Below are positions 30,101-62,500 of a stretch of 64,000 nt of DNA, one piece after another. Made by a program: the position numbers and the translations under genes. How positions within the stretch are numbered: position 1 is the stretch's first letter; the number at the start of each line of letters is the position of its first letter. The stretch is taken from assembly GCA_052327205.1 (NCBI GenBank), contig CM126228.1:28086001-28150000 (forward strand), given 5' to 3'. The notes under the pieces were generated by a model. It did no database searches and was not told the DNA's origin. It worked only from the letters and a program-made list of their open reading frames with translations. Origin of the DNA: Somniosus microcephalus (lineage: Eukaryota).

Positions 30101-30760
30101 AAGCATTGGGTCTGCTTCTCCCGAGTTACTGTTCAAAATGGGAGACTTGCTTCAGTTCTTGAAAAATGATTCTCAAGCCCCTAATTGACATCAAAATTAT
30201 TTCAAAACGGGGCGCGTCATTGGACAGTTTTCTTGAGTGTAATAATTTGAGTAATGGAGACTTAGGCCGGGGTCTTTTTTTTTCAATTTCAATTTTTATT
30301 TGTCACATAACCAAATACAACAAGTGAAATCCAGTCAGTGAAATGCTTTTTTCTTAACGAGCCGAGCGCACCAATCAGCAAAGGACACTTAGCTGCCTGG
30401 TATGCATGGAACCCGCAAGGACGGCAGCCATCTTCATCGGCGCCATCACAATAGGGTCCGCTCTCGCCTTGCTCCGCCTTTCCCGCACTCCTGCCCGACA
30501 ATCTTCAGCCGCCGTGGTACCGACGTTCCGGGGCCTGCTCCTCCCTGGCTCTCCTTCCACCCGGTCTGACCTCCGAGCCTCCCATGGTGTCCGACCTTCC
30601 AGGGCCTGCTTTTCCCGACCTTGGTACGCTGGTCGCATTCCCTCCTACCGGTTCGACCTCCGAGCCTCCTGACGAGGAGCTGCCAGCCGCCGTGCTACAG
30701 CGGGTCGTCGTGGCCTCCATCGCTGCTTCTGCTGACTCACCGCCGACTCTTTCTAGAGGG

Positions 30761-31002
30761 ACTCTTTTTGCCTGAATACCATTCAATAAAGAACCAATGC
30801 AAAACCAAAGGCAGCATTGCCATGAAACCAAGATACAGCCAGTCATATAGCTCTGGTGATTCCTCACATTTACCACAAATCTTCAGAGCATCTGTTCTTT
30901 CCCCTCTTGGGCACAGTCTCCATATTGCAGCTGACTACCATTTCGGCTTTCTGTTATTTGCTTTCCACAGTATAATCCAGGGCACATTAAATCAACATCC
31001 AT
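30761..31002 (-). pseudogene. JKAMP: Intronless, frameshifted 5' fragment of JNK1/MAPK8-associated membrane protein
   Basis: 31002-30913 translates MDVDLMCPGLYCGKQITESRNGSQLQYGDC. After a frameshift, 30910-30761 translates PRGERTDALKICGKCEESPELYDWLYLGFMAMLPLVLHWFFIEWYSGKKS. The stretch ESPELYDWLYLGFMAMLPLVLHWFFIEWYSGKKS is the conserved vertebrate JKAMP N-terminal signature as I recall it. This frame is absent from the supplied ORF track. Confidence 0.9.
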
Positions 31003-31153
31003 AGTGAGAACCAGAGGCGGCCGCTCCACAGACTCCGACACGGCGAACCCGGGGTATTCCACACCGGAACACTACCAGCGTCTCTCACCGCCTGCTTCCG
31101 GTTATGGTGGCGGTGACCTTTGCTCTTACCCCGCGAACCTTAGTCGGGCGCTC

Positions 31154-31408
31154 GCGAGCCGAGTCCGTTAACCCCCGGGCCCCCGAGCCGAGTCAGTTAA
31201 CCCTCCGGGCCCACGAGCCGAGTCTGTTAACCCCCCGGGCCCACGAGCCGAGTCTGTTAACCCCCCGGGCCTGCGAGCCGAGTCTGTTAACCCCGGGCCT
31301 GCGAGCAGAGTCAGTTAACCCCCCGGGCCCGCGAGCCGAGTCTGTTAACCCCGGGTCTGCGAGCCAAGTAAGTTAACCCCGGGCCCCCGAGCCGAGTCAG
31401 TTAACCCC
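31154..31408. repeat. GC-rich tandem array, ~9 units of 28-30 bp
   Basis: Unit about CGAGCCGAGTCWGTTAACCCC(CC)GGGCCYN, with palindromic GTTAAC and CCGG/CCCGGG. It forms the 5' end of the composite element. Confidence 0.95.
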
Positions 31409-32777
31409 GGTCTTGCCTGAAGAGGCGCGTTGGGGTTGGAACTGCTGCCTTTCAGGTTCTAGCCCCGCCCCCAGCGACGTCTGATGCACAGACGCTATTT
31501 TGCGTCAATTGGCCTTGTTAAGCCGGTCCTGCGGGCTTGCTGGCCAATTAAGAGAAAGCCAGTGTCAGATGACGTCAGTTGATGCCGGTTTTCTTAAAGA
31601 GGCCACCACCATTTCTTTTTCACATGATTTTTTTCAGTGTTTGACAGCATTGAGGTGCTGCAAACACTGATAATCACTGTACAAAGGTGAGCCCTTGCAT
31701 CCAGGCTCTCCAGTGACTCTCCCCTTCGGCTAAAACAGATGGCAGCTGCAGGTGAGGTTACAGAAGCGATCTGTCACTGGTGAGAGAGGTTCTCCCAATG
31801 AGGTGGGACTACACAAACACTTCAAAGCTTGTCACATACAGAAAATTCTAAACATATTAAAAATGACACTCCCAAGATTGTCTTACCTCTGCAACTCACC
31901 AGTGTCCCATTGGATCCTTCACATCACTTCTGCAGCTGTCATCTATACACAAACATTAGAGTAGACCCACAGCACGCCACACTTACCCTGGTGAGGTTTC
32001 CCGACGTCGGGAAGCCCACAGTAGAAGTGTCAAAATTGGAAAAAACCTCTTAACTGCCTGTTAACTACCTGTTAACAAGCAGTTAAGTGGCTATAATCCT
32101 CTTCCCGCCACTAGGAGTCGGGTCCCTGCGCAAATCGGGGACCCGACTCCCGGGAAGATTGATTGGAGGTGGGTTGGAAGCAGATTCGGGACCCGCTGCC
32201 AATCTTTTTGATTTTGCCAGCAGTCCTGCCTCCAAACCTGACCCCTGAGCGCCGGCAAAATCGCCCCCATAACCTTCGACTACTTGTAAGTCCTGGGAAA
32301 TTCCTGGGTTACTAGGTTGGCCTTTTTTGCAACTCATACTGCCAAATTTATATTAATAAAGCTCTTCACATATCCACAATTCTAATGAAGGATCAAAACT
32401 AAAGCGTTAGCTGTCTTCCTCTGTCAGATATTTAGTATGTGGTTCCAGTAAGTGCTATTTTCACTTTAGCCTGTCAGCATTCACAATTTTCTTCTTCATC
32501 TCGATCTGCTGTATTCTAAACTATTAAACATTTAATTTACCTGTGCTTTTCTGCTTTGAGTCCCATCATCTGTTTTGCAAGTTGGAGCTAGCTTTGCAAA
32601 TAATTGACCTTTGTCTGAAAACGGGCTCTATTTGAAGAGGGCATTAGGAAAAGGCAGGAAATGTAAGTAAATGGGCAGCTCTTCCAGAGACCTGATGCAT
32701 TCATGTTGGACCATATGGCTTACTTCTAAGTTATAAAACCTGTAACCCCAATAGGGCTGTTTAGTTTTAGCTTATAG

Positions 32778-47400: not shown

Positions 47401-49563
47401 AAACCAGACCACCTGGCATCGACCTCTGCACCGGCTACGGACACGGCAACGGCACACCCAGCCCAGTCAACCCTGCAAAGTCCTCCTCAACAACATCTGG
47501 GGACTTGTGTCAAAATTGGGAGAGCTGTCCTACAGACTAGTCAAGCAACAGCCTGACATAGTCATACTCACAGAATCATACCTTTCAGCCAATGTCCCAG
47601 ACTCCTCCATCACCAGCCCTGGGTATGTCCTGTCCCACCGGTAGGACAGACCCACCAGGGGTGGTGGCACAGTGGTATACAGTAAGGAAGGAGTGGCCCT
47701 GGGAATCCTCAACATTGACTCCGGACCCCATGAAGTCTCATGGCTTCAGGTCAAGCATGGGCAAGGAAACCGCCTGCTGATTACCACCTACCGCCCTCCC
47801 TCAGCTGATGAATCAGTACTCCTCCATGTTGAACACCACTTGGAAGAAGCACTGAGAGTAGCAAGGGCACAGAATGTACTCTGGGTGGGGGGCTTCAATG
47901 GCCATCACCAGAGTGGCTCGGTAGCACCACCGCTGACCGAGCTGGCTGAGTCCTGAAGGACATAACTGCCAGTCTGGGCCTGCGACAGGTGGTGAATGAA
48001 CCAACACGAGGGAAAAACCTACTTGACCTCATCCTCGCCAATCTACCTGTCACAGATGCATCTGTCCATGACAGCATTGGCAGCAGTGACCACCGCACAG
48101 TCATTGTGGAGACAAAGTCCCGTCTTCACATTGAGAACACCCTTCATCATGTTGTGTGGCACTACCACTGTGCTAAATGGGATAGATTCAGAACAGATCT
48201 AGCAGCTCAAAACTGGGCATCCATGAGGCACTGTGGGCCATCAACAGCAGCAGAATTGTATTCCACCACAATCTGTAACCTCATGGCCCGGCATATCCCT
48301 CACTCTACCATTACCACTAAGCCAGGGACCAACCCTGATTCAACGAGTGTAGAATAGCATGCCAGGAGCAGCACCAGGCATACCTAAAAATGAGGTGCTA
48401 ACCTGGGGAAGCTGCAACACAGGACTACATGCATGCTAAAAAGCGGAAGCAGCATGCTATAGACAGGGCTAAGCGATCCCACAATCAACGGATCGGATGA
48501 AAGCTCTGCAGTCCTGCCACATCCAGTCGTGAATGGTGGTGGACCATTAAATAACTAACGGGAGGAGGAGGCTCCAAGAATATCCCCATCCTCAATGATG
48601 GTGCAGCCCAGCACGTGAGTGCAAAAGACAAGGCTGAAGCATTTGCAATCAACTTCAGCCAGAAGTGCCGAGTGGATGATTCATATCGGCCTACTCCTGA
48701 GGTTCCCACCATCACAGAAGCCAGCCTTCAGCCAATTCGATTCACTCCACGTGATATCAAGAAACGGCTGAGCGCACTGGATACAGCAAAGGCTATGGGC
48801 CCTGACAACATCCCGGCTATCGTGCCGAAGACTTGTGCTCCAGAACTAGCCACGCCTCTAGCCAAGCTGTTCCAGTACAGCTACAACACTGGCATCTATC
48901 CGACAATGTGGAAAACTGCCCAGGTATGTCCTGTCCACAAAAATCAGGACAAATCCAACCCGGCCAATTACCGCCCCATCAGTCTACTCTCAATCATCAG
49001 CAAAGTGATTGCAGGTGTCATCGACAGTGCTATCTAGCAGCACTTACTCACGAATAACCTGCTCACTGAAGACCACTCTGCTCCCGACCTTATTACAGCC
49101 TTGGTCCAAATATGGACAAAGGAGCTGAATTCTAGAGGTGAGGTGAGAGTGACTGCCCTTGACATCAAGGCAGCATTTGACCAATTCTGGCATCAAGGAG
49201 CCCTAGTAAAACTGAAGTCAAAGGAAATCGGGGGGAAAACGCTCCACTGGCTGGAGTCATACCTAGCACAAAGGAAGATGGTTGTGGTGGTTGAAGGTCA
49301 ATCATCACAGCCCCAGGACATCGCTGCAGGAGTTCCTCAGGGCGGTGTTCTAGGCCCAACCATCTTCAGCTGCTTCATCAATGACCTTCCCTCCAACATA
49401 AGGTCAGAAATGGGGATGTTCGCTGATGCCTGCACAGTGTTCAGTGCCATTCACAACTCCACAGATAATGAAGCAGTCCACGCCCGCATGCAACAATACC
49501 TGGACGATGTTCAGGCTTGGGCTGATAAGTGGCAGGTAACATTCACGCCACAGAAGTGCCAGG

Positions 49564-49763
49564 TGTAGTGTATGAGCTTTAAGTCAGAACTACTTTTTAC
49601 AGCTCCTGTATACTGTAGTACCGGCAGTAACCACACCGGTATATAAGCTGTGCGCGTGCCTCTGTACCCCAGTCTAGAGATTACCCTCCTCCAGTAAAGA
49701 CCTGTTATTTGTTTATGTACAGCATCCGTGTAATTATTTATCCACTGAACCATGGATCTAACA
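49564..49763 (+). repeat. 5' LTR
   Basis: TGTAGTGTATG...GGATCTAACA with TATATAAG box; 5 mismatches to the 3' LTR by eye. Confidence 0.95.
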
Positions 49764-50242
49764 GTGGCGACGAGTGTCGATGCGAATCTACCTGCAACAT
49801 AAAACAAAACAAAAAAATAGTCGAGTCCAGGAACACGGGCGTCAACCGCGAGCAACCGCCCAGCAGTCAGGCAGAGATCCAACTTCGCTGGGGAGGCTGT
49901 GGAGAGCCGGGTTTGGTTCCCCAGCCACAACGAGCAGTAAGAGACCGACGACAGGTCGAGAGCAGACCCTTCCCGAGCAGCGGTGGCTGGAGCCGACCGA
50001 TGGCAGAGAGAGAGAGCCGAGCAGCGTTGACGATGTAAGAAGAGGGTGAAGAGAGCAGGGCGCAGCCGGGGGTTGATCACCGAGCGGCGTCGAGGAAAAA
50101 TACTGCAAACCGGAGAGAGAGAGGGTAAGAAACAGCCGGGTTCTAGACTGAGCGGCGTCGACAAATATCAAGGGAAGAACGCGCAGAGCACAGCCAGGGA
50201 TCACGGGCTGATCAGGGTCCGCGGGGCGAAGCAAGGGGAAAT

Positions 50243-50465
50243 GCCATTGAGCCGCGGAGAAGCAGGGAGAGCGCGGGAGACACCATTGAGCCGCGGAGAA
50301 GCCGGGAGAGCGCGGGAGGCGCCATTGAGCCGCGGAGAAGAAGGAAGAGCGCAGGAGATGCCATTTTGCGAAGCCGCAGCGGAGAAGATGGGCGAGCGCG
50401 GGAAGGAAGGAATGCACGGGAGACGCCATTTTGTGCCAGCGGAGAAGGGGAAGCGCGGGAGGCGC
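50243..50465 (+). repeat. ~39-bp tandem repeats in the Gypsy leader
   Basis: RCCATTGAGCCGCGGAGAAG...GAGAGCGCRGGAG x3, plus two diverged GCCATTTT units. Confidence 0.85.
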
Positions 50466-50494
50466 AATTGGTGATAGTTAACGCACAACCAAGG

Positions 50495-51350
50495 ATGCCG
50501 AAGAGTGGCAGTATCTCTACGTTCGACAATGAAGTCGAAGATTGGGCGACATATGTGGAACGTATTGAGGTGTACTGCAGGGCGAATGAAGTGCCAGATG
50601 CTAATAAAGCACTGGTTCTGTTAAATTCCATGGGTGCAAAAACTTATGGGTTACTGCGAAATCTAATAACCCCAGAGAAGCTGGTAAACAAGAATTTTGA
50701 AAGCATAGTAGAAATCCTACAGGACCACTTAAACCCCACACCGCTGCTGATAGCAGAACGATTTAAGTTCCATAAAAGGAACCAACACAAAGACGAAAGC
50801 AATGCTGAGTACCTAACGGAACTGCGCAAGCTATCGAAATACTGCCAGTTTGGAGCGGGACTAGCAGACACGTTAAGGGACAAGTTTGTGTGTGGGCTAC
50901 AAAGTGAAGGAACCCAGAAACGGCTTCTATCAGAAAAGGACCTTACGCTGGACAAAGCTTTCAGTATGGCAGTATCACACGAAGCAGCCGCAAGGGGCGC
51001 TGCAGAGATACAACGGAGACCGCAAGAATATGGCACCAACGAAATGACCTATGGAACAGGGAAGTGCTATCGCTGCGGCAGAACAACACATGACCAGAAA
51101 GATTGTTGGTTCAAGGACCAAGTGTGCAGACAGTGTGGGAAAGCAGGACACATAGCAAGAGTCTGCAGGTCTGGGAAGAAAACCAACAGTAAGAAATCTC
51201 CACAGGAGAAGTACAAAAAGGTACACCAGGTGATGGACAGTGGTTCAGACGAACAGAAAAGTGACACAGACTCCGGAAGCAAGGAGCTGGGTTGTCTGAA
51301 ACTACATAATGTAACCGAAATGGAGGATCACCAGACTATCTGGGTTACAC
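50495..51350 (+). pseudogene. Gypsy gag with tandem zinc knuckles (open up to the frameshift)
   Basis: MPKSGSISTFDNEVEDWATYVERIEVY...ERFKFHKRNQ...LRDKFVCGL...RLLSEKDLTLDKA; knuckles CYRCGRTTHDQKDC and CRQCGKAGHIARVC. Confidence 0.9.
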
Positions 51351-51547
51351 AAGATAGACGGAGTCCAAGTGGAAATGGAATTGGACACAGGGTCAGCTCT
51401 AACAGTCATAAATCAAAGAGACTACAAGCGGCTATTTTCACACATACCCTTGAAAGCTACCGAGATTGTCTTGAAGACGTATACGGGGCAAAAAGTCTAC
51501 CCCAAAGGAAAAATAAGGGTGAAAGTGACATATAAAGGTCAGTATGC
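51351..51547 (+). pseudogene. Gypsy aspartic protease, truncated
   Basis: IDGVQVEMELDTGSALTVI...LKTYTG...G...V.V.Y; out of frame with gag by a small indel near 51350. Confidence 0.85.
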
Positions 51548-52684
51548 CAGGGGACAGTGATGTGTGGATCCAGAGTGGTGATTCCACCCAAGTTAAGGGA
51601 GAGAGTGCTAAATGAGCTACATGAAGGTCATCTGGGGGGAGTGAAAATGAAAAGCCTAGCTAGGGCTTATGTGTGGTGGCCGGGAATCGATCAACAAATC
51701 GAAGACCTAACTAAGAGCTGCTTAGGATGCCAGAAGGTCCAAAATGCACCACCACATGCCCCTCTAAACCCATGGGAGTGGCCCTCCTCTCCGTGGTAAC
51801 GGGTGCACATTGAGTCCATGAATGGACCAGCGAAATCAATGTTCTTAATAGCAGTGGATGCTCATTCAAAGTGGCCTGAGGTGATAAAGATGTCTTCAAC
51901 CACTACAGAGAAAACGATTGCAGTCCTACGGACCATATTTGCCAGAAACGGTTTGCCAGAGCAGATCTGCTCTGATAATGGACCACAGTTTGTGTCCGAC
52001 GAGTTCCAAAAATTCATGATAAGGAATGGGGTAAGGCATTACACATCCGCCCCGTATCATCCAGCCACCAATGGATTGGCTGAGAGGTTCGTACAAACCT
52101 TTAAGAAGGCGATAAAGGCCACGTGCGACGAGGAAATTCCACTACAGCATAAGATGGACAATTTCTTATTAGCCTACCGAAATGCGACACATGCAGTTAC
52201 CAACCAGACACCGGCCATGATGTTCTTTAACTGAAGGTTGAGATCTCGCCTGGACTTGCTCAGACCAAATGTGCGAAGAAATGTTGAGGACAAACAATTC
52301 CAGCACATCAACGAGAAGCCGACAAGGAGCTTCAATGTAGGGCAACCAGTCTTGGCCCGGGACTATCGAACAGAGAAGTGGCAACCCGGAACGATATGTA
52401 CAAGGCAGGGGCCATTAATGTACACAGTAGATGTCGGGGAGAACATTGTGAGACGCCACGTCGATCAGATCTTAGCATCACAGGAATGCGTCAACCCCAT
52501 GTCTCGAGTACCTGGGGATGAACCCAACATACCGATAGCATCTACTTCAGACCCAGTAGCAGTGGAACCCGATGAACTACCCGATGAAAAGGGGTCAGAA
52601 TCGCCTCTGCACCAAGAACAAGAACCTCCGGAAAGGCGCTATCCCGAAAGGGTCAGGAAGCCGCCCCAAAGACTGAATCTATAA
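51548..52684 (+). pseudogene. Gypsy integrase with in-frame stops
   Basis: GSRVVIP, LHEGHLG...CLGC (HHCC), VDAHSKWPEV, SDNGPQF, SAPYHPATNGLAERFVQ and C-terminal RRHVDQI...RRYPERVRKPPQRL; stops at 51797-99 and 52232-34. Confidence 0.9.
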
Positions 52685-52771
52685 ATGGACTTTTGTTATT
52701 GAATGTACATGTAAAAATGTAATTGTTATTTGAATATTAAGGGGGTATTATTAATCTAAAAAGGGAGGAAT

Positions 52772-52971
52772 TGTAGTGTATGTGCTTTAAGTCAGAAGTA
52801 CTTTTTACAGCTCCTGTATACTGTAGTACCGGCAGTAACCACACCGGTATATAAGCTGTGCGCATGCCTCTGTACCCCAGTCTAGAGATTACCCTCCTCC
52901 AGTAAAGACCTGTTATTTGTTTATGTACAGCATCCGTGTAATTATTTATCCATTGAACCACGGATCTAACA
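52772..52971 (+). repeat. 3' LTR
   Basis: Direct repeat of 49564-49763. Confidence 0.95.
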
Positions 52972-54654
52972 CCAGGCAGTGACTATCTCCAACAAGCGAG
53001 AGTCTAACCACCTCCCCTTGACATTCAGTGGCATTACCATCACCAAATCCCCCACTATCAACATCCTGGGGGGGGTCACCCTTAACCAGAAGCTTAACTG
53101 GACCAGCCACATAAATACTGTGGCAACAAGAGCAGGTCAGAGGCTGGGTATTCTGCAGCAAGTGTCTCACCTCCTGACTCCCCAAAGCCTACCACTATCT
53201 ACAAGGCACAAGTCAGGAGTGTGATGGAATACTCTCCACTTGCCTGGATGAGTGCAGGCCCAACAACACTCAAGAAGCTCGACACCATCCAGGACAAAGC
53301 AGCCCGCTTGATTGGCACCCCATCCACCACCTTAAACATTCACTCCCTCCACCACCGGCGTACCATGGCTGCAGTGTGTACCATCTACAAGATGCACTGT
53401 AGCAACTCGCCAAGGCTTCTTCGGCAGCACCTCCCAAACCCGCAACCTCTTCCACCTAGAAGGACAAGGGCAGCAGGTGCATGGGAACACCACCGCCTCC
53501 AAGTTCCGCTCCAAGTCAGACACCGTCCTGACTTAGAAGTATATTGCCGATCCTTCATCGTCGCTGGGTCAAAATCCTGGAACTCCCTAGCTAACAGCAC
53601 TGTGGGAGTACCATCACCACACGGACTGCAGCAGTTCAAGAAGGCGGCTCACCACCTTCTCAAGGGCAATTAGGGATGGGCAATAAATGCTGGCCTTGCC
53701 AGCGACACCCACATCCCAAATGAATTTTTAAAAATGGACACCTTTCGGTTGCTGTTGTCTGAGGAAAAAGTGACTTTGGCGCCGAGACTGGTTGTGATCC
53801 ATGCGGGTTAGAAGCAGTTTAGTTCTACCTTTTTTAAAGCAGATGATCTAATATACTGCAATCTAATAGATCGCACCATGTGTGAGTTTATTTCCAAATG
53901 ATCCTCAGATTTTCACGTGGATGCATAAGCTGTTGCTTTGCTTCTGTTGTGATCGCCCTGGATTGAAGGTGGCTTACTGGCCTAGTTAACACAACCAGTT
54001 GGGAAGGTCATGAGTGCATTTGTACAGTTGTTAAGGTTGTTTTAAGCCTTTCAGCAGACAGTAATCTTCATATTGGATGTTAGCCAAAAATAAAATCTGT
54101 TTGATTTGAATTGCTTCTATCCATTTAAAAAAAAATCCTCAGAAAAGTTCTTAATAATTGAGGAAATATTCCTGTTGCCTACTATCTAAAACAAAGTCTT
54201 TCACCTACATCAGTGTCCCAATCCTATCGTAACACAGCCACATTTGTATTGGAAGCTTATATTGATAAAACCTGTAAGTAGGCAAAACGATCCGTGTAAT
54301 TCCAGTGATCCATGGGTGCTTTTTGCTTAATCCCTTTTTAGTTTGTTCCAAACCTTGAACGTTGTTATGCCATGTATCATTCTCTTGCTGAATAAAGACC
54401 GGTGAAGCTTCAGCCAATAAGTGTTTGAGAGAGGATTAACTAATTCCCCTTTTTACCCTCTTTTTATGACATTAGAATGTACTTGAGCAGCCATGCGTGT
54501 AACTCTGCAGTCCCCAGTGACGTGAGTGGGCAGTGCAACTCTGTATATTTCTGATCAGTTCATGATGGGGAGGATTTTTTTAAATTCGCTTATGGGATGT
54601 GAGCGTCGCTGGCAAGGCCAGCATTTATTGCCCATCCCGTTCTTGATTTTGAGG

Positions 54655-61758: not shown

Positions 61759-61938
61759 GGGTGAAATTCCTCGTCAGGTTGTCCAAAATACTGGGCGTAA
61801 CTTTCAACTTAGGCAGGGGTGTAAAACAGGTGGCAGCACGTCGACTTCAATGGAGAGGAAGATTGAGCGGGGTGTATAATGGACGGTCAATCCACTACCA
61901 CCCAGTACTATGCCCCCGCTGCAGTGAAAGTTCCACCC
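61759..61938. mobile_element. Short Harbinger-like MITE remnant
   Basis: Ends GGGTGAAATT / rc GGGTGGAACTT. Confidence 0.4.
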
Positions 61939-62500
61939 ACTGTGTGTGAATAATCGATTGCACTGTGTGTGAGTAATCGATTGCACTGTGTGCGAATAAT
62001 CGATTGCACTGTGTGTGAGCAATATATTGCACTGTGTGTGAGTAATCGATTGCACTGTGTGTGAATAATCGATTACATTGTGTGTGAGTAATCGATTGCA
62101 CTGTGTGTGAATAATCGATTACACTGTGTGTGAGTAATCGATTGCACTTATGTTTTTTTTATATTCGTTCACGGGATCTGGGTGTCGCTGGCATGGCCAG
62201 CATTTATTGTCCATCCCTAACTGACCTTGAGAAGGCGGTGGTGAGCCGCCTTCTTGAACCGCTGCAGTCCGTGTGGCGAAGGCACTCCCACAGTGCTGTT
62301 AGGGAGGGAGTTCCAGGATTTTGACCCAGCGACGATGAAGGAACGGCAATATACTTCCAAGTCAGGATGGTGTGTGACTGGGAGGGGAACTTGGAGGTGG
62401 TGGTGTTCCCATGCGCCTGCTGCCCTTGTCCTTCTCGGTGTTAGAGGTCACGGGTTTGGGAGGTGCTGCCGAAGACACTTGTGTATGAGTAATCGATTGC
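61938..62500. repeat. 23-bp minisatellite (9 units plus one more after a LINE insertion)
   Basis: Unit CACTGTGTGTGARTAATCGATTR at 61938-62144; a further unit at 62476-62500. Confidence 0.95.
62154..62475 (-). mobile_element. 3' fragment of the 47045 LINE family
   Basis: Reverse complement of ~53420-53730; flanked by CACTTATGT (62145-53) and CACTTGTGT (62476-84). Confidence 0.9.

Follow-up and report, generated by a model that had tools for sequence, protein, structure and literature searches.

In the present study, we identified an insert at positions 30277-31408 of the window (the whole stretch of 64,000 nucleotides that was analysed) in which the 5' end of the gene JKAMP is joined to a non-coding, LINE-like carrier element, with GGTCTT on both sides. 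The insert belongs to a multi-copy family, and we have very little doubt that this exon-capture retroposon is real. The family comprises at least 57 independent insertions (56 that were inspected and one that is duplicated on C37 as one pair) in a genome of 6.45 Gb; they have a common module order and are about 2% diverged. As to its birth, the reading that we prefer, at a probability of about 0.65, is that a 5'-truncated carrier inserted into JKAMP intron 3 and that the chimera was copied, likely by a Rex1-type LINE; the intronic insertion taken by itself is as probable as this or slightly more so. An earlier note, made from the sequence alone, had suggested a non-autonomous family in sharks; a multi-copy family of this kind was supported for one shark, the closest JKAMP proteins being those of elasmobranchs (94-96%).

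Structure of the insert and its parent locus

The GGTCTT flanks were found where they had been reported, at 30271-30276 on the 3' side of the element and at 31409-31414 (read on the + strand) on its 5' side. The 5' flank is a repeat, and 19/19 of its paralogues examined continue across the site without an insert, so the target-site duplication (TSD) of the window copy is real, with a length of 4-6 bp; two of its six bases could derive from the tail. Read on the minus strand, the element begins with a GC-rich tandem array (31153-31408) of about nine units of 28-30 bp, or 8.8 copies of a 29-30-bp unit, which agrees with the nine monomers of ~29 bp described earlier and matches the parent locus at G000:C12:88120722-88120868. 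This is followed by JKAMP exon 1 (30999-31152), which holds the 5' leader and the ATG (31002-31000) and stops at the GT donor of the parent, by exon 2 (30912-30998, 97.7% to C12:88126634-88126721) and by exon 3 (30762-30911, 97.4% to C12:88128261-88128412), introns 1 and 2 both having been excised at GT-AG boundaries. A linker (30750-30761), of 12 nt here and of 16 nt in most copies, matches JKAMP intron 3 (17/18 at C12:88131277-88131294). The remainder consists of the carrier from about its nt 99 on (30301-30749), which is non-coding and GC-rich and has the imperfect internal duplication noticed at first, and of AATAAA with an (ATTGAA)n microsatellite tail that closes in a short A-run (30277-30300).

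The identification of the leader, the ATG at 31002 and the JKAMP sequence was upheld, as 3/3 sister copies matched positions 1-71 of Pfam JAMP (E 1e-27 to 8e-25), and with exons 1-3 and the leader identified in the insert the capture of the 5' end of JKAMP stands. The ~80 intronless codons that had been read do not hold for the window copy, in which 7 nt are deleted where exons 2 and 3 meet, so that the frame is shifted and translation stops after 39 aa; no frame of at least 150 aa runs across this copy. A functional retrogene family that makes a 122-aa JKAMP-carrier fusion protein would explain why the 122-aa frame is kept in 21/42 copies with a complete JKAMP part, but N/S is neutral (82/30 vs 2.89 expected, p=0.83), and six distinct stop variants and frameshifts, including that of the window copy, were seen, which makes this explanation highly improbable. 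The copies evolve neutrally.

At the parent locus, the array has about five units; on one side it runs into the JKAMP leader, and on the other it abuts the start codon of a head-to-head gene on the opposite strand. This neighbour belongs to the proline-racemase family (E 3.5e-49), and we take it to be L3HYPDH. Since the array is native to the JKAMP locus, the array, leader and exons represent one captured stretch, and the earlier description of unrelated modules fails for the array and leader. None of the copies reaches into the neighbouring gene, whose first exon matches the parent only. JKAMP exons 4 onward were found only on C12 among 54 Pfam matches (68/68 candidates scored); the dispersed copies thus lack the 3' end of the mRNA. 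The earlier note had also held that a single-copy insert with a native JKAMP array and a body from a JKAMP intron would be a retrocopy of a prematurely polyadenylated isoform. The array is indeed native to the JKAMP 5' region; the insert is multi-copy and its body is not JKAMP intron, as no copy of the carrier was seen in the 60 kb around parent JKAMP, and therefore it is not such a retrocopy.

Comparison of the live gene (exons 2-3 at C12:88126634-88128412, L074) with the copies revealed no silent change in 82 codons. At 3/4 of the codons that differ, the copies have the residues of other sharks, and it is the live gene that shows the derived state, with the changes P8L (in the conserved motif CPGLYCG), K47Q and E50A. 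The copies therefore preserve ancestral JKAMP residues that have changed in the live gene; about 50 false JKAMP paralogues may also enter annotations from this family.

The dispersed family, its carrier and a second composite

The search with the JKAMP module gave 54 candidates, and all 40 that were scored were matches, with 93-97% identity apart from the self match. The count of copies with the same module order that the earlier note proposed gave the order array, leader, exons, body and tail in 30/30 top loci, the array being present in 28 and the tail in 27. An exact 21-mer across the junction had 42 matches and its reversed control had 0. The 5' ends vary among the insertions, 32 of which end within the array, and the tails consist of AATAAA and (ATTGAA)n. 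TSDs of at least 5 nt were observed in 18/48 insertions vs 12.8% in shuffled pairings (0/300 as high); for this test 48/56 insertions were usable, seven that are split or 3'-broken and one that has no tail motif being left out. The 3' flanks match one another in three pairs only (74-92%), and because the flanks differ, an origin of the copies by segmental duplication was rejected. The earlier claim of retrotransposition was supported. Measured against the column majority, 42 copies diverge by 1.9% over their JKAMP sequence, and 50 copies diverge by 2.6% over the carrier.

Seven insertions (L082, L083, L167, L173, L175, L194, L315/L316) have a 5' truncation that falls in the last ~15 nt of exon 3; this is a possible truncation hot spot, and ascertainment differs among the searches. 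The copies on C22 (L077) and C3 (L314) are interrupted by later insertions of ~5 kb, and the C6 copy (L007/L232) is broken off in the body, with its tail ~5 kb away.

L1 insertions are marked by a poly(A) tail and a longer TSD. The poly(A) tail that had been read and a mobilisation of L1 type were not supported, as the A-run of the window copy has only 7-9 nt and closes an (ATTGAA)n tail, the sister copies have (ATTGAA)n tails, and the TSDs are for the most part 3-6 nt long, with at least 8 nt in only 2/48 insertions. This tail and these TSDs make L1 unlikely as the mobiliser. An SVA-like, L1-mobilised and polyadenylated composite with a foreign VNTR would account for the GC-rich ~30-bp VNTR, the exon capture, and the AATAAA and short A-run of the window copy; against it stand the tail and TSDs just described and an array that is JKAMP-native, not foreign as first proposed, and terminal rather than central. 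We consider this explanation to be scarcely credible.

The arrays of sister copies have 1 to ~475 units, and the five units of the parent are exceeded in 22/32 array-bearing copies. As assembled, the longest are an array of 16.1 kb (L188 with L227-L228, on C5), in which a block of about 75 units is duplicated, and an interrupted array of 15.3 kb (L189 with L229-L230, on C4), followed by those of L187, L186 and L184 (4.8, 3.4 and 3.2 kb). Private variants of the unit and duplicated blocks in the long arrays show that these grew in place. The family ties a gene promoter repeat to dozens of new minisatellites. An array search with 30 candidates, for which 150 of 341 matches were listed, led to known copies with two exceptions, one being a split-off part of a copy and the other an orphan array (L313:3700-3850, G000:C2:~35957700). 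The orphan array has 5-6 units, and neither leader nor carrier lies within 8 kb of it; it is on the same strand as the copy L020, ~32 kb upstream of that copy. In mouse, L1 has 5' monomer arrays; the shark array is similar as a 5' tandem array of variable length, and differs in its derivation from a cellular head-to-head gene pair and in that its 5' ends do not favour any phase of the unit (n=32, R=0.21, p=0.26; 76/200 null runs as high). The phases thus lend no support to a monomer-type start site, and a fixed start inside the monomer was dropped as a candidate.

The carrier, a non-coding element of ~570 bp, has a LINE-like 5' end at a fixed position and is closed by an (ATTGAA)n tail. Searches returned 1859 candidates with the body and tail, 1064 with the tail and 954 with the 5' region (including another repeat). 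The carrier family has roughly 1-2 thousand candidate copies. The same start motif occurs in 22 carrier loci among 30 loci from the 5'-region search, and the carrier part of the chimera is 5'-truncated, starting at nt 99. No small-RNA head was matched in Rfam at E 0.1 (carrier in L086, family B, described below, in L254), and by this measure the carrier is not a SINE-like element with a tRNA-, 5S- or 7SL-derived head. Its first 100 nt align to the 5' end of the LINE L178 with a score of 52.5 (shuffles 30.2+/-4.9, 0/300 as high), and the two 5' ends are homologous; L178 is a relative and not the direct parent. L178 (1462-4407, minus strand) has a single uninterrupted frame of 982 aa with EN, RT and PF09004, which runs from the first bases, without ORF1. 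A search for PF09004, a domain that we presume to be linked with Rex1, gave 13,751 candidates, and no clade name stood among the 120 listed homologues of L178. From its architecture, we infer that L178 is of Rex1 type. Rex1 elements are described as having a single ORF with AP endonuclease and RT (PMC6274825, PMC13343379), as being without ORF1 (PMC13343379), and as ending in a conserved 3' UTR with oligonucleotide repeats (PMC6274825).

The partner LINE was also sought through the tail. The carrier tail and that of the one LINE family sampled are alike in style, and 141/1000 shuffles align as well; as the tails are not significantly alignable, the partner LINE is still unfound. The abundant PF09004 family was rejected as the partner because its tail differs. 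A low-power search with the tail pattern and AT-rich upstream bases gave one match, and with a 64-nt perfect tail 30/30 loci were carrier copies. A hairpin in the tail was no better than in shuffles (z -0.79). An older relative of the carrier is present at L077:9428-9815 (73% over 179 nt, with a similar ATTGA tail).

At 3/30 of the perfect-tail loci, the same tail as in the chimera is found behind another 5' module, and we refer to this composite as family B. A search with this module gave 358 candidates; 24/30 loci examined have an array of 29-33-bp units, which are unrelated to the unit of the JKAMP chimera; the array lies upstream of a leader of ~150 nt and an internally deleted carrier. 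Several arrays have at least 45 units and run off the examined locus. Divergence is 2.2% (27 rows, three duplicated loci dropped). The loci are L253-L282 (e.g. L264, L269, L274), L201, L213 and L214, and four family B loci on C24 have common flanks and no array. The 5' module had no match in the examined DNA. Of the gene-capturing family that had been suggested, only one gene capture was found, and a carrier that captures many genes was not. It is conceivable, with the odds somewhat against it, that sharks independently evolved VNTR composites, a Rex1-type carrier having regained its spread through 5' repeat promoters at least twice (JKAMP and family B). If true, spare monomers would keep 5'-truncated daughters transcribable, and arrays would seed minisatellites of up to 16 kb genome-wide.

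Among the data sets listed as containing the element, none was of RNA, and none of the reads of one RNA run, X23 (24% read), showed a full-length chimera. There, 339 reads matched, nearly all on the carrier, and eight reads extend about 13 nt beyond the junction before they diverge, which points to read-through into a truncated copy from a different flank. Coverage of the JKAMP part, in which parent and copy are indistinguishable and reads may have been filtered, was at most 2.7. Contigs of the runs X1 and X2, which may be of the source sample or species, span the 3' junction of the window copy. In the run X4, which has another organism label and comes from another study, a contig of 573 nt covers the exon-carrier junction and the adjacent flank has no depth, so the family may occur in a relative too. 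Contig depths were left out of copy numbers.

Origin and spread of the chimera

In the copies, exon 3 is joined to the linker, whose match in intron 3 lies directly behind a pyrimidine tract and AG, and this cryptic acceptor sits inside an antisense RT-coding repeat. JKAMP intron 3 was the sole non-chimeric match of the linker 18-mer in 956 kb of examined DNA; an identical linker site may occur in other copies of the intron-3 repeat. According to the preferred reading, a carrier of the abundant family described above, without its first 98 nt and hence without its putative promoter, would have landed in intron 3, 16 nt behind this acceptor. Exons 1-3 were spliced to the acceptor, as the junction indicates, and transcripts from the JKAMP promoter would have ended in the carrier tail and would then have been reverse-transcribed by a LINE that requires its own 3' tail. 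Many LINEs are reported to need a template that carries their own 3' end (PMC3747384). If this applies here, only carrier-ended JKAMP transcripts would be copied, which would lead to capture of the 5' end only; such LINEs would thus have a route for moving gene pieces, in which a transcript that ends in the tail yields 5'-only retrocopies.

The assembled parent has neither a carrier nor its footprint in intron 3, and no founder-type locus was seen among 40 exact linker-carrier matches; the insertion allele must hence have been lost or be missing from the assembly. Two new founder candidates proved to be one duplicated truncated copy. These absences, together with the single origin described below, would fit a template switch, in which the RT, having started on a carrier RNA, switched at its nt 99 to a cryptically spliced JKAMP RNA, and the single product was then amplified by the promoter that it had captured; a switch of template onto bipartite LINEs has been proposed (PMC5786205). 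However, a rare mis-spliced RNA would have been needed at the moment of the jump, the join has no microhomology, and the intron site looks like the targets of several insertions whose TSDs overlap tail-like letters. We therefore regard the template switch as unlikely, and the intronic insertion remains our preferred origin.

The carrier parts of 50 chimeras are parted from 27 plain carriers by one branch (99/87, the bootstrap being not fully settled), which argues for one fusion, and nine diagnostic changes mark this part in the chimeras. From this one origin, many insertions with short TSDs and variable 5' truncation arose, followed by neutral decay. At the diagnostic positions, mostly G>T in the chimeras, the plain-carrier state is found in L011, L017, L029, L046, L077, L080 and L194. 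In these seven loci, it occurs in non-nested patches, and one way to read them is as short tracts converted by the abundant carrier.

As a further step, some daughters may have become sources themselves, with the carried CpG-rich array and leader as a putative internal promoter. Going by the sequence, we lean slightly towards such self-propagation, and the family would offer a testable case of promoter capture; the sublineage described below favours an internal promoter indirectly, and the 5' phases and the RNA reads lend it no support. For the long arrays, the last step is the expansion in place, up to 16 kb. The alternative that differs only in the role of the daughters is that all copies are retrocopies from a lost JKAMP allele with the intronic carrier, no daughter having been a source and the long arrays being purely later expansions. 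The trees are mostly star-like, the ages are similar (1.9-2.6% divergence), the 5' phases are random, the flanks of the insertions include none that was transduced from a secondary source, and the copies keep ancestral JKAMP residues, all of which suits this alternative. On the other hand, three copies on three contigs with different ends (L003/L080/L173) share five non-CpG changes (95/94) and have branches as long as those of the others; R46G is present in 33/42 copies and the parental base is kept in eight; the nine carrier changes also speak against it, and an allele that loses much of its transcript at exon 3 would need to have persisted throughout. Variants present in 4-16 copies conflict with one another, and together with the shared changes of the sublineage they suggest multiple source states; a founder allele that long stayed polymorphic could give shared variants too. 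We consider propagation by the gene only to be rather unlikely, with a confidence that overlaps that in the preferred reading.

Comparison with known systems and other features of the window

In human, SVA_F1 carries exon 1 of MAST2 and, in chimpanzee, pt_SVA_D6 carries exon 1 of STK40, with 84 and 94 copies, as reported in PMC6139936. In the shark family, a splice donor bounds the captured stretch, which was joined to an acceptor, took the place of the carrier's 5' end and was amplified as one subfamily; likewise, in SVA_F1 and pt_SVA_D6 as described there, a spliced GC-rich 5' exon replaces the 5' end of the retroposon and founds a subfamily of similar size (at least 57 insertions here). Unlike these, the shark carrier is LINE-like with a microsatellite tail and not an SVA, three exons were taken, the acceptor lies in the gene's own intron and the upstream VNTR was carried too; the promoter activity of SVA_F1 is given as proven, whereas that of the shark array is only putative. 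The chimera thus works like SVA_F1, yet it is not an SVA.

The VNTR composites SVA, LAVA, PVA and FVA have been called hominoid-specific (PMC4432496). As far as that source describes them, the shark element is similar in being a non-autonomous, non-LTR composite with a GC-rich ~30-bp VNTR remodelled at the DNA level and, like PVA, in containing a gene exon. In contrast to them, it has no CT hexamer, Alu-like region or poly(A), and its VNTR is 5'-terminal, gene-derived and up to 16 kb long, not central. VNTR composites and exon-capture subfamilies have been described from hominoid primates and L1, and a shark case on a different carrier would make the recipe general. No published description of the chimera family was found in the article listings and abstracts searched; Dfam/Repbase may contain a carrier consensus.

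The carrier itself has a LINE-derived 5' end and no RT frame, as bipartite non-autonomous LINEs do. In the source consulted, RTE, Ingi, Vingi and R2 are the sole sources of such elements listed as of 2018 (PMC5786205); RIME, NARTc, Bov-A and WALLSI3 resemble the carrier in their LINE-like 5' end, LINE-style tail and absence of a small-RNA head, and it differs from them in that its 5' end resembles a Rex1-type LINE. Compared with a processed pseudogene, the removal of introns and the neutral decay are shared; the chimera differs in having the 5' end only, a mobile-element tail and a clade of dozens of copies.

Elsewhere in the window, a gag-like frame that has CCHC motifs (50147-51535) is enclosed by decayed RT frames (48555-49568 and 53098-53673, plus strand), and the whole (48555-53673) looks like one retroelement nested in another. 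In addition, a 39-bp repeat is present at 50236-50365, and a 23-bp tandem array with 9.2 copies lies at 61938-62148.
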